Below, piece by piece: positions 12,464-35,879 of a DNA stretch of 64,000 bases. The translations under genes and the position numbers were made by a program. The number at the start of each line of letters is the position of its first letter. Within the stretch, counting starts at the first letter, position 1. The stretch is from Psammoneis japonica (lineage: Eukaryota). The notes under the pieces are model-generated. The model did not search any database. It was given only the letters and a program-made list of their open reading frames with translations, and was not told where the DNA came from. Where the stretch lies: assembly GCA_008632985.1 (NCBI GenBank), contig QPGO01000254.1, positions 1 to 64,000 on the forward strand. Direction: 5' to 3'.

Positions 12464-13570
12464 TCAAGCTGTAATCATTGCGGTATTGGTGTCTTCTTCC
12501 TCGACTTTATCTTCATCTTCAAGCTCTTCTCGAAGATCGCCGAGAATCATGACAAGCATGCTAGTAATCTCCTGGCTCAAATTGTACTTGAGCCGAAGGT
12601 AATCGATACGTTCCGCAACAAGGGCCTCTTCAATCTCATAGATAAAGAGCTGCTTGTTTAGCTGTTTTTCAGCGGCATTGATAATGTGCCACGCTCCGTT
12701 GATGTTGAATGGAACCGAGTACATGAGAAAGGTCCATCCCTCCATGGTGAGCGCGTTGACATTTGCACCGTGCTGAAGAAGCAAGTCTAAAAAGGGAATA
12801 TTGACCCCGGCGCGGCTCGAGCACGCCTTGTGGAGTGGCGTGGCACGGTCCATGTTTTCACCCATGCGGGCATTCACGTCGGCACCATGCTCCAAGAGGA
12901 TGCGACCCAGCGTCACGTGACGCTCTCGTAATTCAGGGCCATCCTTTTCGTCGTGAGGTGCCATGTCACTTAACCAGTGGAGACAGGTGCCTCCGTCAGG
13001 ACCCGGATCTGAAAGGGCGGAAGGATCAGCGCCATTTCGTAGCAAGAGCGTGAGTGGAAAGGTTGGTTCACGCATGCGTTCCGACGTCCACCTCTTGTCC
13101 GTGGGAGCATTCACGGCAATGGCAACGGCACCAAAGACGGCTTGACTAAGCTCGTTGCGCACTACATCGGGAGATTGAGTGCCGTTCCACCACTTGCGTT
13201 TCGTTTCGCGAATGAGCTTGTTTTGCGTCTCGACATCATGGCCCTCGAGCCATCCGGCAAAGAGATCTTGGAGGTAGGGCTTCTTGCTGGACCATTCCAA
13301 CGCCTTGTCGACGACATTATTGAAGGTTTCAAGGTGATCTTCAATCGTGTGGACCTTTGGGGTTTCCTCTGGTGTGTCTTCCTTTTCCGTCGGTTCACTA
13401 TTCACGTGATCCTTGACAATACTCACTTCCATGGGAGGATAGGAATCCTCTTCATGCGGTTCTTCGTACTGCGAACACCAATCACTCGAGACTTTACTAC
13501 TCTCCGTGTCTGATTCGTCGTCGTCCTTTAGACACCAATCAAGCAAGGAATCGTCGTGTGTCCTGGCCAT
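12464..13570 (-). CDS. Ankyrin repeat protein
   Basis: LLLRNGADP, GGTCLHW, LLEHGADVNA, TPLHKAC, LLLQHGANVNA; intact 368-aa ORF. Confidence 0.85.
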   Translation of the reverse strand: MARTHDDSLLDWCLKDDDESDTESSKVSSDWCSQYEEPHEEDSYPPMEVSIVKDHVNSEPTEKEDTPEETPKVHTIEDHLETFNNVVDKALEWSSKKPYLQDLFAGWLEGHDVETQNKLIRETKRKWWNGTQSPDVVRNELSQAVFGAVAIAVNAPTDKRWTSERMREPTFPLTLLLRNGADPSALSDPGPDGGTCLHWLSDMAPHDEKDGPELRERHVTLGRILLEHGADVNARMGENMDRATPLHKACSSRAGVNIPFLDLLLQHGANVNALTMEGWTFLMYSVPFNINGAWHIINAAEKQLNKQLFIYEIEEALVAERIDYLRLKYNLSQEITSMLVMILGDLREELEDEDKVEEEDTNTAMITA

Positions 13571-13602
13571 GATTCAGAAGACGATCTTGTTGTCAAAGAA
13601 AT

Positions 13603-13760
13603 GAGTCTTTACCAAAAGTAAAAGGCATGAGGCGTCTGAAACTTGCCAAAAAAGTGGGATGAGAACATCTCAACGCTTTTCAGAGTCTTTACCAAAAGTT
13701 AAAGGCACGAGGCGTCTGAAACTTGCCAAAAAAGTGGGATGAGAACATCTCAACGCTTTT
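13603..13760. repeat. Tandem duplication, 80-bp period, 2 copies
   Basis: GAGTCTTTACCAAAAGT...CTCAACGCTTTT at 13603 and 13683 with 2 mismatches. Confidence 0.95.
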
Positions 13761-14005
13761 TACGATACATTTTTCTCACAAGGAGTCGTGCGAAGAATTT
13801 GAAATTTTGTGAGGCTCAACGCATTTATCAATGTCTTAGGAGATTTAGATAATTTATGTTATTGGTGGCGCTTCGCGCGAACGCGCGACTCACTGCTTAT
13901 CTGAGGTCGGATTTTGGATTTCGTTTTTGCTGCAAAAATAAAGGCAGGAAAAGACAGCAATCAAGACAGCATTCAGCAACAGCGAGTTATTTCTAAAGCG
14001 TTCTC

Positions 14006-15439
14006 ATGTCGACTCCATCTATCTATGTGTCGAGATTGCGCCGAGCGTTCCTCTTGAGAGCTCATCCAGATAGATTTCGTTCTCATTCAGCTCCCATTCG
14101 ACAACAGCAACACGAACTTCTGCAGCATGTTTCCGATCGCATGGGAAAACCTGATTTTCTATCCTACACGCTGGGCGAAGGCGAGCCCTGCATGCCACCA
14201 CGGCACTATCCCTCTCTATCCTATCTATTGGAACACAAGGATGGATCGCTTCATGAGCATTCCTTGAATCTGAATCAGAACGTCATGGCCGTGTTGCAAT
14301 CCATGGCAAACGCCCTTTCGAAAACAGGTTTTGTGCTCTTGCCAGCACCGCCCAAAGTAAAGCCAAGAAAAGATGGTTTTCCTTCTCCAGAAAACAAAAA
14401 TTCCGACATACATTGGGCTTCGCATGATCCAAACAACAATACTACAATTGATCACCAATACGATTTGCATTCCAATCAGGGACGAGATTTGCAATCCTTT
14501 TTGCATAGTCTCAACAAGCAGGAGATTAAGCAACGACAACAGTCTCGTATGGACGTCATGGCGGCCGCCATGGTGGTTCGTCAACGCTATAAATTCTTGG
14601 CCGTGGACGGGACCAAGCTGGGATGGTCCAGCGAGTCGTTGGCGAAATTGTTGAAGAGTTTAATGGATATGCATCAAGAGTTTCAAGACAAGTTTTTGGT
14701 AAAGAGCTTTTATCCACTTCGACTCGTGTTTTCCTCCAAGGAAGATGAACGTCTTGACGTGTACGGGGGTATTCTCTATCTAAATCCCGCATGTACGCCT
14801 TTGCAATGGTTGGATGCCTTTCAAAGTGTGACACCACACGCTTTAGAAAGCAATAAAGAAATTCAAGCTCAACTACAAGACGCTGTTTCTCGAGTGGCGC
14901 ACAGCCTCAATGTGAACTTTTGCAAGGGACACTCGTGTTCGTCACGCGACTACTTTGATTTATTAATGAATCTCAAGACACAAATAGACATCAATGAACA
15001 AGAAGATGAAACGACGACTACTGCGATTGCATTGGAACCGGTCGTCGCCATGGTGGAATCGCCACAAGCTTGTCGGCGTGCCATTTTAACAAAGGAGGGA
15101 CATGTACGGGTGGGTGCCAGCATGACAAGTCAAGCCATTTTAGTGGCACTGTCTCGATTGGCGCCAAGAGCACGACACGATTTGGTCGAACGACGTCGTC
15201 AGAATGAAACCGCAAAATATATTGAGAACCAAGTGCAACAAGAGTTTGGTTTACAACGTGTCCATCGAAGCAAAATGGTGCAACTCGAACAATTTGTAGA
15301 GTCTCTACGGAGATTTCGAATGCACAAGAGCGAGTGGCGTCTACTCTTGGTTGGCAACTCTCTCGGAATTGTGGGGAGTGGTCAGTTTTGTCACTTGGGA
15401 GACGATGGCTCCTTGATGATTCCTCACGATTGGAAATAG
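14006..15439 (+). CDS. TCAIM-like protein (DUF4460/DUF4461)
   Basis: N-terminal LRRAFLLRAHPDRF (J-like HPD motif), C-terminal DDGSLMIPHDWK; intact 477-aa ORF. Confidence 0.7.
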   Translation: MSTPSIYVSRLRRAFLLRAHPDRFRSHSAPIRQQQHELLQHVSDRMGKPDFLSYTLGEGEPCMPPRHYPSLSYLLEHKDGSLHEHSLNLNQNVMAVLQSMANALSKTGFVLLPAPPKVKPRKDGFPSPENKNSDIHWASHDPNNNTTIDHQYDLHSNQGRDLQSFLHSLNKQEIKQRQQSRMDVMAAAMVVRQRYKFLAVDGTKLGWSSESLAKLLKSLMDMHQEFQDKFLVKSFYPLRLVFSSKEDERLDVYGGILYLNPACTPLQWLDAFQSVTPHALESNKEIQAQLQDAVSRVAHSLNVNFCKGHSCSSRDYFDLLMNLKTQIDINEQEDETTTTAIALEPVVAMVESPQACRRAILTKEGHVRVGASMTSQAILVALSRLAPRARHDLVERRRQNETAKYIENQVQQEFGLQRVHRSKMVQLEQFVESLRRFRMHKSEWRLLLVGNSLGIVGSGQFCHLGDDGSLMIPHDWK

Positions 15440-15474: not shown

Positions 15475-17800
15475 TCAGGAAAATCTTGAGCGCATGCAAG
15501 GAAGAGTGGCGGCGGCAACTCTCTTACCTTTGAACTCGCTCGGTATCGTGGTGATTCCTTACGATTGGAAACACAGGTTTCTTAACTGTTAACTATTACT
15601 TTTTTGGAGGTGTGTATGCAAAACATACCTTCAGTATGTGTAGTACTGTCAAATGTTATGACTCTGAGATCGACTCTTGTATCGTGGGCTCAAGTGTAGC
15701 GGCAATACTCGGATCTTCTCGTTCAATCAAGCTTTCATTCAAATCTTCCTGTTCCGAATCCTCCTCCGAAGACTTTACCAAACAACAAATGGAATTGCGC
15801 AACTCGTTCAAATCTGCAATCATGTTCTTCAAGAGAGTTTTTGTCGAATGTCTATCCATCCTTGTTAGAGTCCATCCACTTCGTCTGGACATTTGAGGAA
15901 ACAAGTCTGGCTTCTCTCGGTAAAGCCTCACCAAAAGCAAAGCAAACTGAAAGCAGCACACGGCTACAAGGACAAGGAGCACGAGATAGATCATCATGAG
16001 CAAGTCATTGTTGTTGGACCGGCCAAGACTGAGTCCTCTTAGACAAATATCGCCAAAGCAGTACATGCTAATGCCAACACCCAACCTTATCAAAAAGCCA
16101 ACAAGGTACGTTGCTGCACAGAAACCCACCATGACGCGACTTGCTTGCTCCAGTTCCTCCAAGAGTCGCCGTACATGTGGTGAATATCCATCCTCATCTT
16201 GTGCCGTGCTATCGTTTAAGATGACAATCGAGTCGTCGCCGTGTCCCATTCGGCAGTGCATCATGATGGAGGGTGGTTCGCGTTTTGAGTTTAGAGCAGC
16301 ATGTTGGTCGTGCGAGGGAGTGACGTTGTTTTCTTCCATAGCTTCAAGAAACGAAGGCTGGTTCTCGTGGCTTGTGGCATTGTTGAAGGCCCTTACTTCC
16401 TCCTGGCTTATAAGGACTATCGCCGCTGCTGTCGCCATGTTGATGATGATGTGTTTCTGCTATCCTCTTCACGTTTTGGGAGTCGCGGATTAGATTTGTG
16501 TTGATGTTCGCGCCACAATTTGTGTCAAGATTTCTCTGCACGTCTCCCGTCATCGCGCCAAGCAGAAAAACTGGCACACACACACACACCACGATAAATG
16601 ATGTGCAAGAAGATAGCCAGACCCACCACCACAACATGCTACTTCCGTGGTGCACATTGATGTGGATAGTAACAGCTAGATACACGGTGCAATGTGGGAG
16701 GGAAAAAAAGATGCTCAAATTGATCCTTTTGGGCTGGTTCTTCTGCGCGTGTCTCTGCAATTTTTCAGGAAGATCTCGAACACGCACAAGGAAGAGTGGC
16801 GGCGACGCTCATTCGGTATCGTGATGATTCCTCACGATTGGAAATGTGGGTTTCTTGACTGTTCTCTATTACAAATCTTTGGATGTGTATGTAAAAAATC
16901 CCTTCAGTATGTGCAGTACTGTGAAATGTCATGCCTCTGAGATTGACTCCAGCACTGTTGGATCATGTGTAGCGCCATTACTCGGATCTTCTCGTTTAAA
17001 TCAAACTTTCATTCAAATCTTCGTGTTCCGAATGCTCCTCCGAAGACTTTACTGAACAACATATGGAATTGCGCAAATCGTTCAAATCTGAAATCATATT
17101 CCTCAAGAGAGTATTTGTCGAATGTCGATCCATCCTTATTGGAGTCCATCCAACTCGTTTGGATAACTGCGGAAACAAGTCTGACTGCTCTCGATATAGC
17201 CTCACCAAAAGCAAAGCACTGAAAGCAGTATACGGCTGCAAGGACAAGGAGCAAGCGATAGATTGTCATGAGCACGTCACTGTTGTTGGACCCGCCAAGA
17301 TTGGGCCCTCTCAGGCTACAACTATCGGAGTAGCAGTACATGCTAACGCCACTTCGCAACGTGATCATGATGCCAACAAGGTACGTTGCCGCACACCAAC
17401 CAACCATGACGCGACTTGCTTGTTCCAGTTCCTCCAAGAGTCGCCGTACTTGTGGCGAATATCCATCCCCGTCTTGTGCCGTGCTGTCGTTCAAAATGAC
17501 AATCGAGTCATCGTGTCCCATTCGGCAATGCATCATGATGTAGGGTGTTTCGCGTTTTGATCGTGGAGTAGAAAATTCAGCATGTGGGTCGTGCGAGATC
17601 GTGTCGTTGTTTTCTTCCATGTTCTCAAGAAGCGAAGGCTGGTTCTCGTGGCTTGTGGTATCGTTGCAGGCCCTCTCTTCCTCCACCTGGTTTGTAGGGA
17701 TTGTCGCCGCTGCTATCGCCACGTTGATCTCTGTTTCTCTATCCTTGAACTTCACGTTTTTTATGGAATCGGGGATTTTGCTGATGTTCGCGCCACAAGT
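15475..17800. repeat. Local segmental duplication (about 15475-16520 versus about 16766-17800)
   Basis: Long colinear similarity, e.g. CAAGGAAGAGTGGCGGCG, GATTCCTYACGATTGGAAA, shared peptides YSPxVRRLLEELEQASRVMVG and TSHENQPS. Confidence 0.9.
15656..16438 (-). CDS. Hypothetical 2-TM protein, paralogous to the C-terminal part of the neighbouring MORC-like gene
   Basis: Open 260-aa frame with two hydrophobic segments; may be a partial duplicate rather than an expressed gene. Confidence 0.5.
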   Translation of the reverse strand: MATAAAIVLISQEEVRAFNNATSHENQPSFLEAMEENNVTPSHDQHAALNSKREPPSIMMHCRMGHGDDSIVILNDSTAQDEDGYSPHVRRLLEELEQASRVMVGFCAATYLVGFLIRLGVGISMYCFGDICLRGLSLGRSNNNDLLMMIYLVLLVLVAVCCFQFALLLVRLYREKPDLFPQMSRRSGWTLTRMDRHSTKTLLKNMIADLNELRNSICCLVKSSEEDSEQEDLNESLIEREDPSIAATLEPTIQESISES

Positions 17801-19903
17801 TTTGTCAACATTGTTTTCCTCCATTTCTGAATTACATTGCTTCTTCCTCTCTCGATCCCTCTCTACTTTTTTGCTAAGCGACGCAATTCGACAAAGCGAT
17901 ACCGCATTGTCTGCACACGGAATCGTCGGCTCTGCATGCGTTCCAGAAGCACGGTTGTCAGGGGACACGGCAACGGTGTCCGACCGATCGCTCTGTGAAT
18001 TTTCCATTAGAACATGCCGCGGTCTCGATGCAGGAGGCAGTGTCGCCCTTGCTGGAGACAGAGTGGAGTCGTCACTTGTGGATTTGAGTCTTTTACTGGG
18101 CGTCCGAAGTTTGCGTGGTGGATCCAGATTTACCAGAGAATCTGCGCCTAGAGTAACTGTACAAAAAGTAGATACGACGATGGTGGTGAGCGACGAAGAA
18201 AGCAAAATAGTTCAGAACTCGCGAAGCAAACACACCTTTGCACGGTCCACTCGATTTTCTAATGCTCTTGTCGGAATATCGTTTGAAGCTAAGCGAATCG
18301 TAGCATGTGAATGTTCCGCACATGAAAGACTTCACATTGTCCTTGTGGCGAAGACGTTGAACAGCCTGTAACTGTTGTTGCACGCCTTTCGCGAGTTCGC
18401 CCTTGGAGCCGCCAAATTTCTCGAGGTGCCGATTGTAGTAAAGAGAAGCATAGGCACCAAGCCAGGCGAAGAGATTCTTTTCAAATACCACCCCTGTAGG
18501 ATGCTGTGCAAACGCAAGTCCCTGCTTTGTAGGGTGCAGCGGCAATGTTGACATGTAATCGTCTAGAATAACGGTGAGCCCTTGGCCAAAGGTCGTCCCA
18601 AAATTGTTTAGGCCCAACGCGTTGCGAGCATCGGGTTCCACCGTAATGAGACGACCAGAATGCCTGCTGTGAACATAAAGAGACAACGAGGACGAAGACT
18701 CTCCGTCAAGTCTTGCTGGATCGAACCCACAATACACGCACAGGCTAATCGATTCTGTAGGGTTTTCCCAATCCTCTGCCGTGCTCCACTCATTCTGAGG
18801 GTCTACTTTGCACCGAAAGCTGGTGATTTCGACCAATCTTCTTTCCCAATGCTGGAACCTGATCTTTTGGTGATTGACAGTAAAGTCAAACTCAGCCGGA
18901 ATGTGAAGGTACTGGCGTGGCAACTCATCGGTCAACTTGTGCATCAAGTGCTGTGCTCGAAGGCCGTAATCAGTGTCTCCTTCATTGTCACTGCTTTTGC
19001 TACTGACTAGGGATTCTGATCCGTGGCGTAGCTGATGGAGCACCACAAGAAACACGTGGTCATCACCACGCCACTGATGGCTTGTCATGGCGTTGCAATG
19101 TGAAAGGAGCCGCATAATACCTGTCTCGAAATCTCCATCGCCATAGCAGGACACACACTTGGCAATGGCCTACGGTAAATCATTAAAAACAAATGCGAAA
19201 CAAGTTCAGGAGTCAGTGTGTTCATGACTCAGAGCAGTTATTGTTCCTGAGGAGCCGCACTTACAGGGTTCGTCTTGACTTGACGAGAAAGATCTTCACG
19301 GTTCGGACGAAAGGTAATAGATGGGAGAACAATACCATCAACTCGCTGAACTTCCGCAGTAATCACACCCAAGCCCCAAGTGTCTCTGTTTCGAGTCATT
19401 ATAAAGCTGAGATCGGTCAAAGTAGCGCATGCTTGTTTCATGCCGACGCCGTTTTCGCCGATCGCTTGAGAGCCTTTGCTACTTTTGAATACCTCAAGGA
19501 CCTCTTTGATTGGAGGGATTCTGTTGTGACAGTTACTGATGATTGAAATCCCGGTGGAGACTCCCTCGGCATCCTTATCACCCATAACATGGATTCTTCC
19601 TCGGCCTTTGAAGTTAAAGGCATCTTCATCAATCACCAGCGATGCATCAATTGCGTTGTCAAACAAATCCAACAGGGCCAAAAGAGGTGATTTAAAGTTT
19701 CGCTTCCATGCCTTCCAAATTCCTTGTCCGTTAACTCGCGATACGTATTGGCTGGTCCCCCGGCCACCAGCGGCACGTTCTTGCTGCATACCGCTGGCAG
19801 CAGAGACGGATGACGTACTCGTTCGGATACTCGTTTCATGAACGACTTTTTCTCGTTCTTCTTTCACCGCCACTTGGGACTTAGGGCTGCTGTTGTCCGC
19901 CAT
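17009..19903 (-). CDS. MORC-like GHKL ATPase; predicted introns 19170-19264 and 18157-18235; 3' end frameshifted near 17230
   Basis: LLDLFDNAIDA (GHKL motif I), IGENGVGMKQAC (motif III), S5-like region (LYVHSRHSGRLI, GLTVILDD, LHPTKQGL); both GT-AG introns join the three ORFs in frame. Confidence 0.75.
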
Positions 19904-20299
19904 TTTGGAATGGCGCGTTGAATACCGTCGAACTTTGGTAGTCTGCTTCCTGCTTCAATCACCACTTCTTGTTCCACAGAAGAACAATAACAGCGATGAA
20001 ATAGATAACGCAGACCGCACTCCGCACTCGGTGGTCGCGCGCGCCCTGTTGCACTGTTCGAATGGAATCAATCTGCGGCGCCAGCACCTCATTTGTGTGA
20101 GATGATGTTGGCCAACTTGGGAAGGTGGCATCAATGGCATCTTGATGAAACAGGTTGATGTTTGATCATCACAGGCTGGTTCTCGTGGCTTGTGGTGTTG
20201 TTGAGGATGGATCCACGGCAGCAAGGGCGAACACTTTTGGGCCGCGAATCATCATTTCCCTGCATTTCTCGCCGCATTGTTTGAGCATGCCTCGGAGCA

Positions 20300-21450
20300 A
20301 CACCCAAAAACACTGAGCTCACACACAACAACATCATGATGTGCTGCAAGAGAACACACTTCTCTGACCAGACCCAGTGCTGCTGCCTGCCACTTCTGCA
20401 ATGCACTGTTCTTGTGAACACGGCTGCCAGCAGCTCTGGAAACATGGCAGAAGGCGCAGGCTGTGATGACAACTGGAAACTGCTGACCAGCAACAGCAGC
20501 GAGTTGGGGGGGGGGGGGGGGGGGCATCAACTGAAGTCAGAGCCGACAAGAAGTCCTGCACTCCCCAGTGATCTTCTTGCAACTGTGTCAATGACACTGT
20601 TGGTGATTGCAACATCTTGGAGCTCAGGCAATTTGCTGCATGTGTGTTGGGTGGGGGGGGCTCTTCTTCCAGAATCCTTGACTTTGGATGTTTTGCTTGC
20701 AAGACCTCCAGAGCTGCATCATCAGTCTTCTTGTCAATGTCATCCAGCTGTGGAGCTCCACCTTGTTTCCTCTCAGCAATGCACCCAACTGGACCTCTCA
20801 GGTTTCCTTGTGGCAGCATTCCATCAAATGTCTCAGCATGCTGCTCAGGCATTTTGTCCTTCTGAGTGGACTGGAGATCACTTGCAAGTTGCATTTTGGA
20901 AGACATTCAACAAGCATTTTGTGTTCACCCACATCTCCCAATCATCCATGTGTCTGGTGCTGAGTGGGGTTCTGATGTCCTTCTTTGCTCCTTTTGCATT
21001 GCAACCCACCCACTGTGTGAGACAACAATCTGGAACACCACGACAAACCTGACTGAGTTCCGCTTCCATGTCTCAATCCCATGAAGCTGCTCTGCCAATT
21101 GCCCAAGCTCAATGAATCATTTCCCTTGGGAGCCGTTCAGAGTGTTGTGTCATTGTGTTGGGTGGGGTGCTGGCTGGTGCCAACAATGCTCTTGCCAGCA
21201 AGTTTGGCCATCCAATGTTTCACCACCCAGATGCCAGATGAGTGCCAGCATTCAGCTTGCTTGCATGTCTTGCCACATGCCTCATAAATGAGCCACTCAG
21301 CACCTGAATTGAAGTTGTTGGGTGTTGCATCAGGATCAACCTGTGACAGGATGGTGACTCCCTCTGAGCATCCTTTGTCCTCCATTTGCTCTCTCTCCCC
21401 AGAGAGGCAGTGCTGTCCTCCTCACCAGCTGGCTCCACTCTCATGATCAT
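20300..21450 (-). mobile_element. Degenerate non-LTR (CRE-like) retrotransposon fragment
   Basis: QGNLRGPV..IAERKQGG..LEVLQAKHP and WSEKCVLL resemble the region at the start of CRE-like RT; TpA/CpG depleted; 20300-20600 is homologous to 28570-28920. Confidence 0.55.
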
Positions 21451-21999
21451 CACCCATCACTCTTGAACATTGGGTGCAGTGTTCTCTTTTTTGGCTTCAG
21501 GACTGGCCTCTTTTTCTCTTTTGTTGGAAAGAAAGGACAAAGGCATTGTGGACAACAGTCATTGGGTCTTCTGTCTTTGCATCCGCTTGAGTTGAGCAGG
21601 TTCCCAACCCAATCTGACTGTCATTTTTGACCCTGGATGTGTTTTCTGCTTCAACGCTCAAATCATCATCCACTCCTTTTTTCCCATTTCCTTTTGTCTG
21701 GCTGCAAACATGGAAAATTGCTGCCTTCTCATTCTCAGGTCAAAGAAAGAAGAAAGTGCAGGGAAGGTGTTGTTCACGTGTGGAGAGAATCTCTCTTTGC
21801 CCTGCCAGGATTTTGTGCAGGTTCTGCATGATTCTTGAGGCAAATGGAGAGAGACTCCAAAGAACCAGAGGCAAAGAGCCACGAGACTCTCCACTCTTCA
21901 TTGCAGAAAAAACAGCGAGAGGAGTTTTTGAAAAGAGTTTTTTGAAATGGCATCACTGCTTTTCAAAAACTGTGTGTTTTGTTTGCGCTGTTTGTTTGT

Positions 22000-24900
22000 G
22001 TTGAGACAGCAATGGGCCGGGAGCTTTAAGACCATGAAATGTTTTGCTCTCTCAAACTTCCAAACACTTGGCTCTTTAGAGTCTTACATTCACAGGAACA
22101 ACAAGCATCTGAAGTTTGGCACAATTTCTGTCATGTCACTTGCAAGCTGTGGACCCCAGAAAAACAAGAGATGTCGCCACAAGGACTGTTTTGCTTGACT
22201 CAAGAAGATGCAAAACGCACTTTGTGCTTGCACAAGAGTGCTCAGCATGGTTTTGATTTTGTGCCAACAGAAATGATGAGTCATGACTCAATGCAAAAAC
22301 CAGTGCTCTGTTTCATGTGTTGTGTTTGTTGAATTGAGTCAATTGTCAGCTCATGCATGCAACTCAACTCATTGCTCACAGTCATGTCTTTCTTGTGCTT
22401 GCTGCTTTCAATGACATCGTGCAACACCTGGCAGTTTCCACACCATTTTGCAACAATCAAATGTGGCATGGTTTGTGTGGGAGGTGCAAGTGTCATTCAG
22501 TGATGGAGCACAGCACACTGTGTGCCTTGCCAATGTGGTGTGCATTTTGCTCACAAGGCATTTCTTGCTGTGCTCTGTCTCCTTGGCAGCAGGTTGAGAC
22601 AGCCCCGCTGCATTGCACTCATGGGCAGGATTCTGGGATTGTGGCAGGGAGGCAATGAAAGACTGGGCTGTTGTGTTTTCCATTTTGCATTGTGCTGCAA
22701 GTGCATGTTGTGATGTTGAACTGTGCCAAAAGAGCATCTTGCTTGCTCCCCTTTTTTTGCTGTGCTTGGCATCGTGGTGGCCACTTGCTTGAGATGGCCT
22801 TGATGACAGGCAGTGTTGTGGGATTGCAGCTTGCAAAGTTTGGGGCACAAACAAGGTCAGACCAAAGTGCTTGCTTTTGTGTGTTGTTTTGCAAGTGTGC
22901 ATTTCACATGATGACACATGAAAGGTCGCCAAAATGTGCATTTTGTTCATTCAACTTTTTTTGATGTGCTTGGTCTGTCAGAAGCCAGCTGTCATTCGTG
23001 AACCACCAAATCCCTGGGAGGCAAACAGATGCTGAAGTCTCAGTGACAATGAGGTCATCAAGATCAATTTTGCCTTTGCACAAGCTCTGCAAGATGTGAT
23101 GATGACCCAAGCACCCCCAGTCTTCCAAGGCCGAATCTTCAGAGAATGAAAATGTCGCTGTTGGCTTTTGAATGTCATTGCAGCAAGTGTGCAGTGTCCC
23201 ATTTTCCAATGCTTTTAAATGTGCTGCTGCTGCTTTAACACAGGAATGAACAGCACAATCATTGGGCCCTTGCCCAGCATGCAGAGGAATGACACACTCG
23301 ACACCCAGCTTTTCTGGACTCAGTGGCACAGCAACCAGCTTTTGCCAGAGCCATTGCAAGATGGCATTTGGCTGGAGGCTGGCTGTCTGCATGCACCAGA
23401 AGCTGTCCAGCTGTGGCAGCTTCTCCTTTGAAAGAGCAATCAACAAATGAGTTCAGCCAGTGGCTGGCCATGTTTTGATCCCAAGAAGATGTCAGCAAGA
23501 GTGCCTTCTGCTGTCACCCATCATGTTCCAGGCTTGCCATCAAGTTCTTTTGCCCATCCATTGACATTGGCCCAGTTGAACCACTGCAGTCTCTTGTGAA
23601 ATTTTGCATTGACAACTCAAATGCCAAGTTGTGAAAATTGCTTGTCAGAGCAAGTTAAAGTGTCCTTGAACAACATTGTCATCAAGGAGTGCACCAGCAC
23701 AAAACAAGTCCCACACATTCAGCATGTTGACAGAGACCCCATGCGGCAGCCTTGGCAAATCAATTTTGCCAATTGTGCAAGTTCAGTTGGTTTCATCTGC
23801 CAGCACTTGTGTCGCCCCATTGTCCAGTGCAATCCTGAAACAAATGTCTCTGTCAGCAAGAAGCCTGTTGTTGACATGGACTCTGAATGATGCCAGCACA
23901 CTTGGCTTTCATTGTCAACTTTGCATGTTTGAACACTTGTCTCTTGCTTTGTCCTTTTCCCATTCCAACTTGACCATTGACATGGTTTTGGGAAACATGT
24001 CTGTGCCATTTGATGGCTCTTTGTGTGCAATCATGAGCCACTCAAAGTTTGTTTCTTTTGGTTTTTCTTTTGGGCTGCCCAACCATTGCTTTTGAACCAG
24101 ATGGTCTGCTTTGGTTTTGCAGGGAATCAGCAGGTGTCACAGCCAGCCCAAGTCTCTTTGCCAAGAACTTCAAAGATGGTGTCAGCACTTCATCTTTCAT
24201 CTGGCTCATCCAAGCTTTCAACAAATCATGGATCTTGGGTGGACTTTCCAACACCAACCCAATCAGCTCAATTTGGCTTCATGTCTCCTGAAAAAGATTC
24301 TTGTGACTGGGAAGCATGACAACATTGAACAACTTTTGAATGACATTCATTCTACAGCTCATCAAGAGTGTGCAAATGAGGATGGCCAAGGTTGGGCTTG
24401 CCATGGCACAGCACACCAGTGCTGACATTGCAATGAAAAGTTCAAAGTGCCAACAGATGGTGGGCTGTTTCAACACTTGTCGCTTGACCAGCCAGAAGTG
24501 CCCAAAGTTTCTGGTGGAAATTTTCCAATTGGTTGGTTCTGCTGCCATGCCACCACAGTCAGAAGCCATCTGAGTTGGAACCTTCTCTTGACAAAACTGA
24601 AACACCCAGCACAGGTTCAAACCAACCTTTCTTGGCCTTTGCTGCTGTGCTGACAAACCATGCATCAAGTTCTGGGGTGCGGCATTGTTTGAAAGCATTG
24701 CTCTCACGAATCAATTTATGTGCAAGACAAAGATTGGAAGCGTGCATGTCATTGACTGGACATGGCATCCTCACCTGTGCTCAAATGCATTCTCTGTTGT
24801 GGTGCTTGCACTCTTCCATTTCTTCATGAGAGAAACCTTTTGATTTCAACACTTCTCACGTCTCACAGTGGGAGGCAGTCATCATTGCAAACAAAGGTTG

Positions 24901-27900
24901 GCTCTTGGGCAAATTCACACAAGTGTGGAACAATGGGACAATCACGACACACCGGCAGCACGTCCATCATGTGAAATGTGTCATTTTTGGCACGGCTTCT
25001 AAGCTCATTCTTGGTGCTTTCATCCAGTTTTGATGCATCTAAAAGCATGTCTGGAGTTTCATTTGGTGTTGCCATTGCCATCGTGTTGGCAATTGTTTTG
25101 GCTTGGTTTGACTCTGCACTCATGTCAGATGCTGTTGTGTCAGCATCATGGACTTTGGTTGGGTTGGTGATGGCATTGGATGCTGCAATTTTGTTGTTTT
25201 GTGCCAAAGCAGCAGTTTTGTTGTTTTGAGCCAAAGACTCTGTGCAACCCACTGAATCCTTTTCATTGTTTTGCACTGAGGAGACAGAGTTTCCCTTGGA
25301 GTCAAGATCATTTTCAGTGAAGAGAACAGACAATGCTGAGTTGGGTTCTTCTGGAGGTGGCACTTGAAGGTGGTTTGTCTGGAGCAGGACAGTGTCAGAG
25401 TGGCCTCTTCTGCAAACTTCTCCAATTGTGTTTCCCTTTGCATGGTTTGGCTCCTCGTCTGCTTCGTCATCTGAGAATCTGAGTGGCAGCTTCTGTGAAT
25501 CTAACAACACTTCATCAATTTGGACCAGAGCTTTTCCTTGGCCCACTGGCTCACTGCCATGTTTTGTGGAAACTCCCATGCCTCTGCAGTTGCCAATTCC
25601 AACCACAGCACCTCTTGCAATGACTTGTCCTCCACCAATTGTGTCTGCCATGCTGCCAACGTTCACAACATCAAGCTCAGCCACTGCCAATTCCAACCAC
25701 AGCACCTCTTGCAATGACTTGTTCTCCACCAATTGTGTCTGCCATGCTGCCAACCTTCACAACATCAAGCTCAGCAGGTGGCTGAATCAAGCCCTGGAGT
25801 TCTTGGGAAGAGACCACTTTCAGCAACTGCACTGTGAGAAGCTTGTGGACAATGGTGCCAGCTGCCACACATGCAAAAATCTCTCAGCTGGGTTGGCAGG
25901 AAGATGACTCTCTCTCACAACCAGCCCTTTGTCCCTTCTCTTTGTAAAGCAATCATGTCACATTTTCAAAATTCACTCTGCAAGAGCCTTTGCACAAGTG
26001 GAGCCGCAGTTGTCATGTGTCTTTGCAGTCACTGCTGTCTCCAAACGGTCTTTGACATTGATGCCATGACCCTTCAAAAGTCTGTTCAGGTTGCCACTGA
26101 TTTGTCTGCCACATGGAACAAGCCGCCCATCTTCCAACATGCACTTCAACCAAATGGGAAAGACCCTCATGGCATGAACATCAACAACTGCTGTGGGCAA
26201 CCCCTCAAAATGCACCTGCAGCCAATGCTCCCTCGTCAACAGCATGCCCCCTGCTGCTCCACTCTGCGTTGAGCCCATGGCACTTTCCATGATGGCTGGC
26301 ATTGAGATTGACCATTGCCTCATGATTCTCTTCAAAAACCTGATTGACATTGGCCACATCCTGAAAACAATGAAAATGCTGATGAGGCAATGAAAGAGCT
26401 GGGTTGGATTTTGGGACATGTGGGCTGACACCTTCCAACAGCTCTGCACAAGACACAGAAACAATGCAGGCACACACTGAGCAACTGAGAAAATCATTTG
26501 GAGCTTTGCATTTGTTCAACAACCATTCACACCTGAGAAAACACAATTGAACATGGCACTGTTGGCACCTGCATTGTCGGTGTCAAGTTGACTGAGCTTT
26601 GGGGCACATTGTGCCTTCCTTGCCACCTGAATGTGCTTCAAAAAGGGCTCCATTTCATCTTGTCCTTTGTCACCACCTGGCTCCCATCCTTCAGATGCAC
26701 CTGTGTCTTGCTTCAGTGCTTGAACATCACATCCATTGCAATCTGCGAGTCCTGGTTAAACTCAAAAAACCCTGCATGTGCTGCTCAAACACATTGTTCA
26801 CAAATGCAATGAAGCTTTTTGCAACTCTTGCAGCTGATGAACAGATTCCATTGTGCTTGCCAGGCTCTGAAAAGGCAGAGTGTGGCACTGTGTCCTGTCC
26901 ATGGCATCCAATGGTTTCAACCGGATCCCAGAGCTGAGGAGACTCTCACAGCAGCTCAGCTGCTGCTGTCAAGAGCAATCAAAAGATCTTGTCTTGTTCA
27001 CCATGGATGAGATCATTGTCTTCTGGGGAACATGGAGCTGACACCAAACCTGGAATGGAGTGATGGTTGCTTGGATTCTCCAAAGATGCTTTCAGGTGAG
27101 GTGGCATTGCCCGCTGCAAAGCCTCTTCATGCATGTTTGTCATTTCTCATCCACTGGTGGCTCTTGCTCTCCCCAATGGTGACTTTGTTTTGCAGCATCA
27201 AAGATTGGACACAAAGCTCCCATTTTCTTTTTTTTTGTTCAGGAAGTGCTTGGACCTCCCATCACAACCGGCATGATGTTCCTTCTTGTTGCTCTTGCTG
27301 TTCTTTGGACAACCTCTGGCAGCCATTGTTGCTCTTGTTTTTGTTGTTTTTTGATGTTGCCATTGCTCCAGCGGTGTGTCAAGCAAGAGACTCATGGCCC
27401 CATCTCTCTTTGCCCCCTCTGAGTGCGTTCTGCAAAAGCCGGGGGTGCATTGTGGTCAAAAACTGTTTTTGTTGAAAATGATGTGACTGTCCCTCACTCA
27501 GGTCTTTCTCTGCATGCCCAAGAGGAACCAGGGTGTCTCTGTGCACAACTCCCATGCTTCCTTCTCTCTTTCAAAAACTCAGCCCTCAGGTGAATGACAC
27601 CTGCCAAGTGCAGAGCATGCTGGCCAAATGTTTGTGTGCAATTTCTGTGGCACCACAGACTTCAGTGCAAATTCAACTGGGACTCCCTCAGCTTGGCCGA
27701 GCCAAATCGTCCATGTTTTCATCAAAAAGCCAAGCATCACAACAAAAGAAGAATCAAACCATCACAAGCACTGCACCTGGCTGCAGGGGAACACAGTTTG
27801 GGGGGTGAAAGTGCAATTTTGAATCTCATGTCATCAAACAAATGCATTTTTGCACCAAATCGGAAAATGCAACAAGTCGGTTTTTAGACAATGACATCTG
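22000..27900 (-). mobile_element. Highly decayed DNA transposon relic (transposase-like, 3'-5' exonuclease-like and Ulp1-like remnants)
   Basis: DTFHMMDVLP and RTNQLENFHQKL transposase-like motifs (about 24500-24990), LKCMLEDGRLVPCGRQISGNLNRL exonuclease-like (about 26080-26160), QGPNDCAVH Ulp1-like (about 23250); many stops. Confidence 0.4.
25591..25775. repeat. Tandem duplication, 94-bp period, 2 copies
   Basis: TGCCAATTCCAACCACAGCACCTCTTGCAATG...CAAGCTCAGC at 25591 and 25685. Confidence 0.95.
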
Positions 27901-28569
27901 TGGACACGTGGGTCGAAATTACACTTTGAGTGTCAAACCACATCATCTCTTGATGATCTTTTGACAATGCATGATTTCCTGAGTCTTGCAAAGGGGTGTC
28001 ATCATCATGCATTGCCTGCAAGTCATGTTTGGTTTTGAGTCCTGGGAATGGAAATTTTGCCACCAGTTTTGGTCACAGATGAGTGCAGGGATTTTGCCTT
28101 TTTTCTGCACAACCTCTTGCACTCTGGCATCCAATTTGCATGGTCCTGCGTGAATCCTCTGCAGAAGGATCCAACTTTTGGTGCACTCTGCGCCACCTGA
28201 CAATGACAGTCAAGATGATCCTCCTGCCAACATTTGTCATGGTCCTCTTTTGCTCTGCTCTACATGCAGGGGAGCAGGAGCATGGACATCTCCAGAACAT
28301 GGGCAATCCCCTTCCCTTCTCCAAGATTTCCAAACGGCCTGGTGACGCACTAACTGGTCGTTGTGCAGCTTTGACAACATCCAGCACAAAAGCTTTCAAA
28401 AAGAGCTTGGCAATGAAAAGCAGCAAGAGCCAATCAAGCAAGAGTGCAAAAAAGTCAAAAGGAAGCAAAGCAGGGAAAACCCAGAGAAGAGCTGCCAGCT
28501 AGAGGGCCCTCTCACGTTTCAACATTTTTTCCTCCATTTCTGAACAAAACACACTGCAAGTTGTCTGCA

Positions 28570-28970
28570 CGTCTCCTGCTTCCAAGAACTCTCACACAAC
28601 AACCAACACAATCATGATGCGCAAGAGAACACACTTCTCTAGCCAGACCCACCCGCTGTGTGCTGCTTTCATGACACACTCTGTTGTGGACACCACTGGC
28701 TGGCGACATGGCAGAATGTGGGAGAAAAAAGAAGGTGCCCAAATTGGTGCTTTTTTGGGCTGGTCCATCAAGGCCAGCTTGCAGCCTCAAGCCAGCAAAC
28801 TGCAACTGTCCCATGTGGCCAGACCATTGCAAACCAGTCAGCAATTGCAGTGTGACAATTGGGAGCTGGCAAGCAACAGCAATGAGTCAGAGGGTTGGCA
28901 TCAGCTGAAACAAAAAGAGAGATTGTGCTGGAGTCTGACAGCTCAAAACAGGAGCAGGATTTTCAGGCTG
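28570..28970 (-). mobile_element. Second degenerate CRE-like fragment
   Basis: GCAAGAGAACACACTTCTCT..CCAGACCC shared with 20346-20376 and colinear flanks. Confidence 0.5.
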
Positions 28971-29432
28971 TGTTGACAACTCAAAGGATGGCATCATCAA
29001 CTTGAAAGCAATCCAGCATGTGGAAAAGAAGTGCAACAGGCAAACGGCAAGCTGCGGCAGAAGCCTTGCCACCACTGCAACAAAGCAAGACACAGAGAGA
29101 TGCCCAGCAGCAGCATTTTTTCTTGTTGTGCACCCCTGCTCGAGAGCAAAGTTGCTGAAAGCGCTGACTGTTGAGGTTGAAGGGGAGGGTTGGGGGGAGG
29201 AAAAGCAAAAGTCAACAACACCATCACGCAATGTCATTCCAGGAAGTCTTCGTTGCAACGATCAATCACTGAAACAAACGCCGGTCTGCCTGTTGTACGC
29301 GCACGACGCGCCACCCACCACACAAAAAAGTAACAGCCACATCAATCAACAATGCATTGCAACCTACACGTAATATCAACAATAACAGAAGCTTTTGAAT
29401 CGTAGTTGAGTGGGAGAAGAAGAATCATAATA

Positions 29433-32369: not shown

Positions 32370-33890
32370 ATGTTGCTGGATTTTTGTTGTCTTCTCGGTG
32401 TGGTGTCGATGGTCTCTGTCAGCAACAGGTTGGCACACTTTCCGCAAGGGTAGTCTGGCCCAAGCAGGGTCATCTAATGCTTGTGCAGGGAGAGACCAGC
32501 ACCATCCTCCCATTGAGGACGTCTGGAGCTGATCTGGGGCGAAGGGATGCGTGATCCCCTGAGGCAATGGTGAGTTGCTCGTACCAAAGTGATGCTCATT
32601 CTCGTGTTAACATAGCTGCATACCTCTGAATGTGGCTTTTGCCATTTCTCAGCCACTTTGGCAGAGATTCTGCGCAACGCTGCTTTGGCTTCCTTGCCAA
32701 GCGGTCCATCGCATGAAACGAAGGAAGGGAGCAAAGTGGCGACGTTGTTCAAGGCAGGGCTTGAGGCACTTGTGCTTTTTCTCTTGTTTGTGTTGTTCCA
32801 GAACTTGCTCTGGTGTTTTGGACAGGTGTGATTTCGCGTCCGTGTCCGGGGTGCGAACATTCATGACAGTGTCTGTCCTTTTGTCCCAAAATCCTTTAGA
32901 CAAAAGATCTCCACGGTCGCCATCCTTGGACATGCTGGAGCATGTGTTGCCTTGCGAGTTGTTGGAGGTGCCTGGGCTTCCTGAGGCATGACCAATGGGT
33001 TTAATGAGGGGTTTGTTGCGTGCACAGGAAGGCTTGAAGGCTGCTCCGATTGGGTCGCCAAGGTCATCACGCACATTGTCGTGTCTTGAGATGACTGGAC
33101 CGCCCTTCTTGCACTGCAGGGCATGGTTGACAGAGAGTTTGCAGCCGCATCCATTGCAGCACTCAAGAAGGTTGGGGGGAGTGCTGCTGCATTGCAGGTG
33201 GAGCACGTCAAGGAATTCTGGACAAGAGAGTTCCGTGCCGTTCAGTGTCGATGGGTGCACTGACAGCCATGCACCGGCACTTGTGCCACGCTTGACAGCT
33301 CTGGCCTTGAGGTCAGATGGAGTCCGGAGGATTGTCTTGAGTTTCTCCTCGTGCATCTTGGCTTTCCCATTGGCCACTTCTTCTTTCACTTTGTGCATCG
33401 TGTCCTTGTTGACTGCTGGAGAGAAATCCGAGTGGCCGCAAAGTGAGTCTGTCACGTGAGAGCACTTGCTTCACAGTTTTGGGATGCAGACTCCATTGGA
33501 CAAGGGATTGACAGTCCTGCAAATTTGATTGGGAGGGCAGACAGGGCCAGCCTTGGATCATTGTCAGCCAAGGTCTTGCCAATTGACGCTGGAAGAAATT
33601 GGCGATGGATCGCGTGTTCCACTTCCGTGGAGGATTCTCCACAATCCTTTGCTGCACGTTGGACGCATTGCCGCTGGTGCTGTGGGGAAGACCAGCGCAG
33701 GCAGTCTGTGGGTGGTGAGTTGCAACAGCCATGACTTGGCTTTCTCCGCTGGCCATCGGTCATGTGCTTCCATCTCTCCGACGAAGCCTCCAAGGTGGCG
33801 GCCACCTGAGCAGACAGTGAAGCCAAGGTCTCCAAAGTGCTCCCTGGCATGCTCCAGGCTGCGTTCTGGGACTGCTGGGACACTTTTCTA
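32370..33890 (-). mobile_element. 5'-truncated CRE-like non-LTR retrotransposon (RT C-terminus, zinc knuckle, restriction-like endonuclease)
   Basis: RHLGGFVG, LPIKFAGLSIP, GAWLSVHPS, C..C..HALQCKKGG..RHD, RGDLL.KGFW..DT, EQRRHFAPF, HCLRGSR; frameshifted, with Tyr to His/Cys changes. Confidence 0.85.
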
Positions 33891-33899
33891 TGCAAGCAC

Positions 33900-35600
33900 C
33901 CACCAGCAGCCCCTGCGTGTGTTTCTACGCGTGCTCTCGTACAGATGTTGCTCTTTTTAGATGGCGTTTTGCTGGGTCCCTTGTCAACCTTTTGGCCCCT
34001 TCTGCCATTGGTGCACCCTTTTATCTCCATGATGTGCAACAATTTTCAGTGGAAAATGACTGGCGTCAACACCTTGTGGTTCGCATGCTTGTTGTCTTAT
34101 TTGGCAATTTTTTGCGGATTTGGTGCAATTTCTACACAGAATCCAATGCAAATTCCACACGCTTCAGAAACACACACCGACAGTCATTGCATCTCCGACA
34201 TGATCAACTTCCTTCAATGCCCAAAAGCCCCCAACAATTTCTTTTACTCCAACTGGCTGCCCAAGTTCTTCACCTCATGTGGTGAAAGTGCTGTCCCTGT
34301 TGTGGCGCCTGTGAGTGTTCACATGGAGAAACCATCGGCATCCTCTCAAATGACTCCCATTGGCTGCAGCACATTGTGCAGTGTTCACAGAGCACCAGGG
34401 TGAACTTGTGGTGGGCAAAGCTCTTCATTTGTGGATGATGCCATTTGCACAGGGTGCGCAAAGCAAGCACAATGCATTTTGCACAATCCAACCTTTAACA
34501 GCAACATGTGCCAACTCACAAATTGTTCTTGGCCATCTTTCAACTGCTTGACATCTGCCTCCAAATTTTGCACATGAGGGAGACACACCTGTGGTCACAC
34601 AAGACAATTGCAAATTTTGGTGTTCAGCACAGAGCCCAGCTGGGGTCATTGTGGCCTGCAAAGGAACAGTGCCAGGGCTGACTTGGCTGACATCAAGATG
34701 GCAGAACCCCCAAAGCAAAAGTGCCAAGAAGCAACATGTGAGTTCATGAACATCACTCACTTGTCAGCCACAAACATTTCTCAAGAAGCCAACAACACAT
34801 GTGTGACCTGAAAGCACTCCAGCACAGACATGGCCGGTGCCAAAAAGGCACAAATGATGATGCTCTTCCCCAATGGGCCTCAACATGTTTGACAGTGTGC
34901 TCTCAGCCCAGCAGCAACAATGTGCCTGTGTGACTGCACAGAGTCAAGAAGATGACTTTGCAAGAAGCTCACTCTGGCGGCATTGGTGTGGGAGTCTGCT
35001 TGGTCAGAAGGTGCTCTCCTGAGCTTGTGCACAGGAGTTTTTGAAACTCCTGCCTCTCAAACCATGTGATGGCACACCACACAAAGTCATGTGTGTGTCA
35101 TGGGTGTGCCAAAAGCAACCCAACAAACAAAATTGGCTGGAGAAGATGTGAAAACAACAGGGCGATGATGTCCATGGAAACACTGCATTGGCAAATGCAA
35201 CAACATTGGTTTGTTGCAGCACAAACTTTGCTGGAGAGGTTTGCTTGATGCTCAATGTTTGGCTTGCTGCTGGTGTCTTTCTCCATCGTGGCTGAATGCA
35301 TGTTTGCTTCTTGCTCAAATCTCTGCACACTTTTCTGCACTCATCCTCCTCCTTAACCACAACATGGCTTGCTGGTGCGTTGGAGTCTTGGTGTGGGTTC
35401 TGTGTGTCAAACCACTGGATGATTCAAAGTTGTTTTCTGCTGCTGCTTTGCGGCACTTTTTCTGCATGTGACGAGAAGCCAATCTGCTGGTGTGGCAACG
35501 ATGTGCTGGCAGGGCGGAGATTTGACTTCAACAATGTCCCACACACTGGAGGCTCCTAAAAACAAAATTCACTGAGCATGATGGTTTTTTGCCTCAGTTG
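33900..35600. repeat. Degenerate repeat relic depleted of TpA and CpG
   Basis: Composition only; no confident protein motif. Confidence 0.45.
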
Positions 35601-35744: not shown

Positions 35745-35879
35745 TGAGCAAATGCAGTCATGCTGTCGCTGTGTGTTTGCACAGAACAACCTCACAATTT
35801 CCAGAACCTGTTGTTTGCCGCACCAACACTTTCTATCATATCTTGTCAAATTCCTAGAGACTACAGCGTAAATTACTCA
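35745..35879 (+). repeat. 5' LTR (135 bp, about 40 bp shorter internally than the 3' LTR)
   Basis: TGAGCAAATGCAGTCATGCTG...CGTAAATTACTCA, matches 55172-55346. Confidence 0.92.

Follow-up and report, generated by a model that had tools for sequence, protein, structure and literature searches.

Why has a 9234-base stretch of a eukaryotic genome kept almost none of its TA dinucleotides, and why do the few that are left share a preferred context? This question is raised by positions 20055-29288 of the DNA analyzed here, a 64,000-nucleotide window from Psammoneis japonica (contig QPGO01000254.1 of assembly GCA_008632985.1, positions 1 to 64,000 of the forward strand; all coordinates below refer to this window). 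A preliminary description of the same DNA had noticed that the surviving TA sites were mostly YTAR (where Y is a pyrimidine and R a purine) and had proposed a mutator that prefers 5'-TA[C/T]. We confirmed the YTAR bias of the survivors, which departs strongly from chance and recurs in other parts of the window. To judge from the sequence comparisons given below, it is quite likely to be the footprint of a transition process that is confined to transposable-element DNA and converts the T:A pair of TpA to C:G.

Loss of TA dinucleotides in a multi-copy element

Only 20 TA dinucleotides were found in region 20055-29288, compared with ~631 predicted from base composition (observed/expected 0.03). 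All five sites that had been given as examples were present (at 22027, 22077, 23656, 25000 and 28500), and the survivors were indeed mostly YTAR: 13 of the 20 fell in this class (five TTAA, six CTAA/TTAG and two CTAG), seven in the YTAY/RTAR class (hereafter half-sites) and none in the RTAY class. When 500-base windows of this region were examined, the observed/expected values were 0.00-0.08 for TA, 0.03-0.30 for CG and 1.4-2.1 for CA/TG, versus ~0.5, ~1.0 and ~1.2, respectively, in the adjoining gene DNA. The TA-free block as a whole extends from 20007 to 29295 (TA 0.03, CG ~0.15, CA/TG ~1.9) and has sharp edges, the last preceding TA being located at 20006 and dense TA occurring again from 29296. 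Its longest gap without any TA is 1279 bases, whereas gene DNA has one TA every ~25-30 bases (35 per kb). CA and TG were almost equally frequent in region 20055-29288 (1027 vs 1045) and randomly interleaved (runs test, z 0.79), and no strand-coordinated tracts were detected there by this test.

The block is a multi-copy element. In a public sequencing run (X1) that contains 83% of the sampled 31-letter words of region 20055-29288, summed depth was 130-310 over 20.8-28.2 kb, compared with ~30 for single-copy pieces. Two other runs (X2 and X3) contained next to none of the sampled words. A comparison of the copies in X1 with the window revealed 2085 variant places, including 1582 transition and 494 transversion places. 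These data also bear on the possibility that TA and CG carry base modifications which the sequencing or assembly rendered as TG or CA. Some long-read base-callers make systematic miscalls at modified motifs, and TA and CG are both palindromic, a usual property of modification sites. However, X1 contigs, with a word depth of ~20-35, cover parts of the block without any difference (although X1 is possibly the sample behind the assembly), the affected sites vary among copies, and genuine decay is evident from in-frame stops and from non-TA changes scattered over the relics. Such an artefact is thus very improbable.

Context of the surviving TA sites

Two baselines were used to examine whether the loss depends on the bases flanking TA. 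The first was the host gene DNA of the window (29,403 bases, 1031 TA), in which 15.7% of TA sites were YTAR, 53.2% half-sites and 31.0% RTAY; the second was a set of 80 unmutated copia relatives from metagenomes (16,677 TA), with 18.0%, 48.8% and 33.1%, respectively. In all 80 loci of the latter, TA observed/expected was 0.50-1.01. At gene-DNA density, region 20055-29288 should contain 50.9 YTAR sites, 172 half-sites and ~100 RTAY sites; the numbers found correspond to a survival of 0.26 for YTAR (~4-fold down) and 0.04 for half-sites (~25-fold down), and RTAY was more than 33-fold down. Both the excess of YTAR (binomial p 9e-7 with the gene baseline, 5e-6 with the copia baseline) and the deficit of RTAY (p 6e-4 and 3e-4) were significant. 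The NTAN classes, once normalized to gene DNA, had therefore been depleted unequally, the likelihood-ratio p value against equal depletion being 4e-7 for region 20055-29288, 2e-21 for the copia element and the insert nested in it (see below) and 6e-29 for all element DNA. The same bias was observed in nine other TA-poor blocks of the window, whose 165 TA comprised 69 YTAR, 80 half-sites and 16 RTAY (p 1e-15 and 6e-11).

The milder TA-poor blocks retain enough sites to rank individual tetranucleotides. Relative to gene DNA, survival was 1.18 for TTAA, 0.47 for CTAG, 0.45 for CTAA/TTAG, 0.37 for GTAA/TTAC, 0.23 for CTAC/GTAG, 0.12 for both ATAG/CTAT and GTAC, 0.11 for ATAA/TTAT, 0.035 for ATAC/GTAT and 0 for ATAT. 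Thus, ATAT and ATAC/GTAT are lost first and TTAA last. A model in which each flank contributes a single survival factor, with the factors of the two strands multiplied together, fitted the data, and the base 3' of TA ranked A > G > C > T for survival in three independent partitions and with both baselines. The factors for A, G, C and T were 0.62, 0.39, 0.09 and 0.04 in region 20055-29288, and 0.99, 0.59, 0.38 and 0.15 in copia plus insert. The rule can be stated simply: TA is lost faster when it is preceded by a purine, followed by a pyrimidine or both, the two effects are multiplicative, and the order at position +1 is T > C > G > A. A possible effect of position +2 was also seen, in that A at +2 (T at -2) had a frequency of 0.46 among the survivors of all element blocks and 0.27 in gene DNA. 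This effect, by which TTTAAA-like sites may be the best protected TA, is tentative and confounded by the composition of mutated DNA.

Direction of the change

The direction of the change could be determined from two coding relics located downstream of the TA-free block. The first is the relic of a diatom CoDi-like copia polyprotein on the plus strand. Its major part (38327-41590) corresponds to residues 12-1126 of the nearest homologue and was recognized by tblastn and by the Pfam domain RVT_2; its C-terminal part (54199-54947, plus strand; residues 1122-1370) was identified by tblastn. One named match was from Fragilaria crotonensis (56% identity); together with matches in MMETSP, it provides a lead towards a diatom host. 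The two parts are separated by a nested 12.6-kb insertion (41591-54198), which has 8.5 TA per kb, compared with 8.2 in copia. The second relic, a Plavaka-like (CACTA-type) DNA transposase, lies within this insertion (45250-48585, plus strand) and contains two in-frame stops. Only four homologues were detectable among 5.8 billion proteins (35-38% identity, E values down to 1.7e-87), one of which carries the Plavaka domain PF18759 of Pfam. It should be noted that the preliminary description had mentioned a nested DNA transposon. We could not find one within region 20055-29288: no Pfam domain was present in its 75 open frames, and its inverted repeats were unconvincing. The relic at 45250-48585 is a DNA transposon located elsewhere in the window.

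For copia, the residues of 60 full-length homologues were collected for each codon of the window, and a column was considered conserved when at least 70% of at least 30 homologues agreed. Among 660 conserved columns, 511 were unchanged in the window and 149 had changed. The 31 conserved Tyr columns now read His (CAY) in 17 cases, Cys (TGY) in 10, Arg (CGC) in one and Phe (TTT) in one, and only two still read Tyr (TAY). The five nearest homologues cover 30 of these Tyr columns, and in 26 of them all five have Tyr. Most other conserved residues were kept in 71-98% of their columns; Ile and Thr, whose codons are struck at the T-A codon boundary (here and below, the hyphen marks the boundary), were kept in 50-53%. 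Tyr content was 0.46% in the window frame versus 2.9-4.6% in 120 homologues among the matches listed, and His and Cys were raised in the window frame. TA observed/expected in the copia relic was 0.09-0.20 at all codon phases. In total, 82 of the 149 changed columns could be explained by TA>TG (35), TA>CA (29), CG>TG (7) or CG>CA (16). In the Plavaka-like relic, none of 14 conserved Tyr was kept; they have been replaced by Cys (5), Phe (3), His (2), Arg, Trp, Lys and a stop (1 each). The change from TA to TG or CA, which had been assumed at the outset, is thus borne out by the Tyr columns of both elements.

Several additional comparisons agreed with a process of transitions. First, whichever flank class was considered, gene DNA and element DNA had similar densities of pyrimidine-purine steps (57-64 vs 58-61 per kb), as expected if only transitions occurred. 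Second, pieces of the 5' and 3' long terminal repeats (LTRs) of the copia element (35779-35879 and 55246-55346, both on the plus strand) were 91% identical, and 100% identical in purine/pyrimidine letters. All nine differences among their 101 positions were transitions, and eight of the nine were TA/CG versus CA/TG steps. LTR pieces are identical at insertion and these now differ; therefore, the changes accrue after insertion. Third, a short, unmutated fragment of the terminal repeat of the block element was found in gene-rich DNA (16614-16740, plus strand), which allows the states before and after mutation to be compared. Its match in the block (28640-28766) shares 70% of the nucleotides and 91% of the purine/pyrimidine letters with it, the differences being 28 transitions and eight transversions. 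One of the six TA of this fragment is shared (as CTAG) with the block copy, in which two others are TG, two CA and one GA, and both CG of the fragment are CA or TG there.

These observations bear on two explanations that rely on RNA. One is that transcripts of the elements were edited by an enzyme of the ADAR or ADAT type and the edits were fixed by reverse transcription. A change from A to G with U before the edited A is a hallmark of A-to-I RNA editors, and copia, and probably the block element, are retroelements. However, the relic of a cut-and-paste DNA transposase is equally damaged; therefore, RNA editing followed by reverse transcription is excluded as the main route. In addition, the sense strand of copia shows at least as many T-to-C as A-to-G changes (17 His and 10 Cys), which is not a single-strand pattern, CA equals TG in region 20055-29288, and the two LTR pieces of one insertion differ. 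TAG, the hot spot of ADAR, was among the better survivors (0.39-0.59 with a 3' G vs 0.04-0.15 with a 3' T), and elements in which nearly every Tyr has been replaced could not transpose through repeated rounds. On these grounds, RNA editing is a very improbable source of the pattern. The other explanation is selection on the elements to avoid UpA and CpG in RNA, a tendency also found in many RNA viruses and in cytoplasmic mRNAs. Joint suppression of CpG and UpA with an excess of CpA/UpG is the classic pattern of RNA viruses, as far as the available text of the sources goes. On the other hand, the reverse transcriptase, integrase and transposase have had their conserved Tyr replaced (by His, Cys or Arg at 28 of the 31 copia columns, and none of the 14 kept in the transposase relic), the element frames carry stops, and TA is normal in functional relatives, all 80 loci lying at 0.50-1.01. 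The probability of such selection is negligible.

Taken together, the process acts on DNA, on both strands and on a retrotransposon and a DNA transposon alike, and its limits are sharp. The rate of TA loss is far above that of other changes and above that of CpG decay.

Site rule versus strand rule

The preliminary description had reasoned that YTAR is the only class presenting TA plus purine on both strands, which is correct, and had concluded that the target is 5'-TA[C/T]. This preference holds as a rule about sites, in that those with R at -1 and Y at +1 are vulnerable. It is not supported as a rule that the A changed is the one on the TAY strand, since half-sites give CA and TG about equally.

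A test that needs no baseline was made at codon boundaries, using copia columns with a conserved residue whose codon starts in A. When the A was followed by Y (Ile, Thr and Met), 16 boundaries had become T-G and one T-A survived; when it was followed by A (Lys and Asn), none had become T-G and five T-A survived (Fisher p 2e-4 for Y vs A). The columns with G at this position (Ser and Arg) gave four T-G and two surviving T-A. Tyr codons, which are all TAY on the sense strand, provide a second test: under a model in which the TAY strand is the one changed, those preceded by Y should become TGY. In copia, three Y-preceded Tyr codons had become TGY and eight CAY, and in the Plavaka-like relic three had become TG (one of them TGG) and one CA. 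The pooled value of six TG among 15 differed from an 80:20 expectation (p 8e-4) and was compatible with 50:50. A third result came from a mass balance against the copia relatives for the sense-strand context Y..Y, where CA had gained 6.4 and TG 6.3 per kb.

Two strict same-strand models each disagreed with part of the data. The first, in which the changed A is followed by Y, disagreed with the pooled Tyr codons (6 TG vs 9 CA). The second, in which the changed A has R at -2, disagreed with codon-boundary sites that have Y on both sides, where nine T-G were found against at most 10 possible C-A. We tentatively suggest that it is the duplex site whose flanks are sensed, after which either A of the TA:TA pair may be changed. 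This reading would fit all three results and is prompted by the nearly equal yields of CA and TG from half-sites.

Confinement to element DNA and a separate CG process

In the host genes of the window, TA observed/expected was 0.40-0.55 at all three codon phases, including 0.49-0.55 at silent positions, and CG was ~1. The flanking genes are eukaryotic and encode a protein kinase, ankyrin, DUF4461 and COG2 domains (Pfam). In genes such as 5695-8301, 12464-15439 and 56849-57943, two dinucleotides were raised to 1.42, namely CA across codon positions 3-1 and TG at codon positions 2-3. The TA of genes showed a bias opposite to that of transposon TA (RTAY 31%, YTAR 16%). A 1-kb tandem duplication in gene DNA (81% identity) has been spared, as indicated by 92 transitions, 78 transversions and a TA of 0.5. 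Its copies (15475-16532 and 16765-17812) flank the terminal-repeat fragment at 16614-16740, and all three sequences have escaped hypermutation. Their order points to an insertion or deletion that took place here long ago.

These data allow us to consider whether any targeting is needed at all. A genome-wide bias from TA to CA/TG might have brought old neutral DNA to equilibrium, with genes kept by selection, and the fact that host genes are already poor in TA (0.40-0.55) with raised CA and TG (1.42) is in the direction that a mild form of the same bias would give. However, TA at silent positions of genes is 0.49-0.55 rather than 0.03-0.15, and the bias of gene TA runs the opposite way. Furthermore, other substitutions in copia are modest while more than 85% of its TA is gone, the edges are sharp to tens of bases, the terminal-repeat fragment in gene DNA kept its TA, and unmutated repeat pieces occur within the repeat region. 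An untargeted bias is therefore improbable.

Two of these unmutated pieces deserve description. The first is a short insertion with inverted ends (37934-38320, ~390 bases) that resembles a miniature inverted-repeat transposable element (MITE) and lies just upstream of the copia coding frame, which starts at 38327. It is rich in TA (0.71 in 38001-38500) and of very high copy number, with a summed X1 word depth of ~64,000 versus ~30 for single-copy DNA and loose ends in X1. The second is a TA-rich island at 36000-36200 (~30 TA in 200 bases), beside the 5' LTR piece of copia. The sparing of the high-copy insert implies that targeting is not simply directed at any repeat or at anything in the domain; length, age, element or copy type, or chromatin probably matters. 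Repeat-induced point mutation (RIP) requires duplicated DNA above a threshold of length and identity and leaves single-copy genes intact. In the present window, the mutated blocks occur in many copies in X1 and genes have escaped, as have the 81% duplication and the ~390-base high-copy insert.

CG has also been lost from the element DNA, and its replacement by TG and CA is that expected from methyl-CpG decay. CG observed/expected was 0.03-0.30 in region 20055-29288 and ~0.6 in copia plus insert. TA loss was ahead of CG loss in both the copia block (0.15 vs 0.6) and region 20055-29288 (0.03 vs 0.15). The flank factors spanned 0.59-0.88 for CG, which is a weak effect, and 0.12-0.86 for TA, and in copia no RCGY had been lost where 94% of RTAY had. 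Since TA loss runs ahead and RCGY is intact where RTAY is gone, two processes must be distinguished. Methyl-CpG decay, as read from these ratios, appears to proceed alongside as a separate and almost flank-blind process that accounts for the CG part only. The outer ~250 bases at both ends of the block (20055-20300 and 29045-29290) have lost TA and kept much CG; the CG process therefore spans less of the element than the TA process.

Identity of the elements

The TA-free block has degenerate terminal direct repeats that resemble LTRs. The left one (20326-20504, plus strand) matches the right one (28604-28981, plus strand) in a colinear manner, the best piece being 84% identical over 51 bases. 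In purine/pyrimidine letters, 20345-20454 and 28620-28728 are 89% identical. Because of these repeats, the block element is probably an LTR element. The left end also contains homopolymer runs of 19 G (20505-20523) and nine G (20647-20655), and one X1 contig ends at 20523. Gag, reverse transcriptase and integrase were not recognizable in region 20055-29288 by the searches used (Pfam, Atlas, HMMER and a copia profile). Specifically, Pfam gave nothing credible for its 75 open frames, an Atlas search with a 297-residue frame returned no usable match, HMMER with a 255-residue frame found 0 matches among 1.8 billion representatives, the copia profile matched none of the six frames, and tblastn with copia and Plavaka proteins gave no match. 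A scan of the same region for inverted repeats revealed only arms of 22-28 bases with 70-77% identity, and Rfam had 0 matches in the whole window.

Two further blocks of depleted DNA were identified. One, strongly depleted of both TA and CG, occupies 1-1406 and runs off the window; three TA were counted in the 500-base windows of 1-1500, two of them within 1-1400 (one YTAR and one half-site), and the next TA is at 1407. The other is a TA-depleted repeat block at 32500-35550, which is high-copy in X1 and most strongly depleted at 34500-35500. The minus strand of the insertion nested in copia also carries long frames that are relics (42037-44926 and 48724-53665), for which no match to a family was obtained. 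Long frames are in fact a trait of the mutated DNA: when TA is gone, only TGA stops are left, and therefore many long false open frames appear, reaching 297 residues in region 20055-29288 and 490 residues in the insert; the trait also extends over 38500-54500.

Possible mechanisms and relation to known systems

To our knowledge, the well-studied point-mutation defences against mobile DNA all deaminate cytosine (RIP and AID/APOBEC) or edit RNA (ADAR). The process described here resembles some of these systems in part. As far as the available text of the sources goes, RIP of ascomycetes and the TCG/CpG-directed RIP-like hypermutation of basidiomycetes share with it a restriction to transitions, a target of mobile or repeated DNA, sharp limits and action on both strands (PMC2621366, PMC3318451, PMC5381629). 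According to the same partial texts, they are also alike in having a flank-modulated dinucleotide target and in wrecking coding capacity while leaving the purine/pyrimidine skeleton intact. However, RIP as described there converts C:G to T:A (CpA to TpA), which creates TA and lowers GC, whereas T:A is here converted to C:G and TA is destroyed. The RIP signature of raised TpA and lowered CpA/TpG was absent, TA being 0.03 and CA/TG 1.9 in the block and Tyr codons having changed from TAY to CAY or TGY. Cytosine deamination cannot produce the TA loss seen here. In addition, the hosts of RIP are fungi, whereas the host here looks like a diatom-type protist, and a dependence on repeats is at most putative here, the 81% duplication and the high-copy short element having been spared. 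Methyl-CpG decay likewise changes CG to TG or CA in elements and is present here too, but it cannot remove TA, is slower and is nearly flank-blind. Very-short-patch repair of enterobacteria, which is directed at T:G, drives TA to CA/TG in one tetranucleotide and makes CTAG scarce. It differs from the present process in being bacterial, genome-wide and mild and in depleting CTAG, which is here among the survivors.

The A-to-I deaminases ADAR and TadA/ADAT2-3, from which DNA-editing derivatives have been engineered, share with this process a net change from A to G and a T/U 5' of the A (PMC10661471, available in part). In the available text of that source, the preferred contexts are 5'-UAG for ADAR, which acts on double-stranded RNA, and 5'-ACG at tRNA position 34 (U33-A34) for TadA/ADAT2 (PMC10661471). 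The TadA-like context TAC, for which the enzyme's own target is UAC(G), is a good target here, but TAT is better, and TAG, the reported optimum of ADAR, is a poor one. On the basis of that partial text, these enzymes act on RNA, whereas the substrate here must be DNA and the flank does not appear to decide which strand's A changes. The T before A is absolute here. A strand rule of the TadA type was fitted by the codon-boundary sites (16:1 vs 0:5) and not by the Y-preceded Tyr codons (6 TG vs 9 CA), and the resemblance to TadA/ADAT is a lead. No domain with the cytidine-deaminase fold turned up in the window frames scanned with Pfam. We know of no natural eukaryotic DNA adenine deaminase.

What kind of chemistry might then be responsible? 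The process would act in place, on the duplex or transiently opened DNA of silenced elements, and would not proceed through RNA editing and subsequent reverse transcription. The simplest chemistry may be that an enzyme deaminates the adenine of TA to inosine, on one strand or the other, a proposal that we regard as less likely than not; a mutagenic modification of thymine would leave an equal trace. A genome-defence enzyme that mirrors RIP, that is, a DNA-acting adenine deaminase or an equivalent base modifier which recognizes duplex TpA, best as RTAY, in silenced transposons of any class, is a possible agent, though a doubtful one at this stage.

In the thymine alternative, the T of TpA in silenced elements would be modified, for example to 5-hydroxymethyluracil (5hmU) by a dioxygenase of the TET/JBP type, and would mispair with G and lead to T to C. 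All counts fit this equally well, since T-to-C and A-to-G changes are indistinguishable in duplex DNA, and a mark on duplex DNA suits a flank that leaves the choice of strand open. The DNA transposon of this window resembles Plavaka, a group whose first description reportedly also covered expansions of TET/JBP genes in fungi. According to the available part of PMC11572971, a TET/JBP homologue of dinoflagellates makes 5hmU that is enriched in repeats, and transposons are reactivated when it is inhibited; this is an enzyme-made change of thymine on the repeats of a marine alga and possibly mutagenic at T. The part available reports no mutational footprint or TpA flank rule and makes no mention of a T-to-C signature (PMC11572971). 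Against the idea, no TET/JBP domain was found in the window frames scanned with Pfam, a search that is insensitive on relic frames, and the mispairing of 5hmU would have to be frequent enough for 97% of sites to disappear, which is an assumption. Moreover, the host is not a dinoflagellate, as judged from intron-poor genes of ordinary composition and a diatom-like copia. Thymine modification is an unlikely explanation, yet one with some substance.

Several points weigh against reading the YTAR bias as the footprint of a targeted process of this kind. The block itself offers only 20 surviving TA, which were normalized to stand-ins for the ancestral sequence (gene DNA and copia relatives of another family). 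The direction of change was proved for copia, the Plavaka-like relic and one 127-base fragment, and not for the bulk of region 20055-29288. X1 is probably the sample from which the window was assembled, hence it is not an independent confirmation. The MITE-like insert and the TA-rich island were spared within the repeat region. Furthermore, the product tests diverge (16:1 vs 0:5 at codon boundaries, as expected for the same strand, and 6 TG vs 9 CA for Y-preceded Tyr codons), the duplex-site reading is a post hoc and tentative fit to small numbers, and selection during the last active period of the elements could bias the amino-acid counts. Finally, all of the evidence for the process comes from sequence.

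Implications

A near-complete, DNA-level conversion of TpA to CpA/TpG that is confined to elements seems to be new to the literature, and its mechanism seems to differ from that of the hypermutation systems known so far. Searches of the openly available literature, which was covered in part, turned up no account of transposons hypermutated from TA to CA/TG, and an earlier description is possible; a paper on diatom copia elements (PMC2806351) makes no mention of hypermutation, repeat-induced mutation or dinucleotides. Removal of TpA from the DNA of both a retrotransposon and a DNA transposon needs a chemistry other than that of the known defences, and the flank rule provides a fingerprint for choosing candidate enzymes, spotting the process in other genomes and dating insertions. 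The consequences for the elements are severe: affected copies lose all Tyr codons and all TAA and TAG stops and gain long false open frames. Searches by domain or by nucleotide sequence no longer detect them, although they can still be aligned in purine/pyrimidine letters, which makes them a trap for annotation. If a genome-defence adenine deaminase or an equivalent modifier were indeed responsible, no earlier natural example of DNA hypermutation from A:T to G:C in eukaryotes would precede it. It would also represent a natural A-to-G editor that reads double-stranded DNA at a defined motif, which would be of interest for base editing if the agent is a DNA adenine deaminase.

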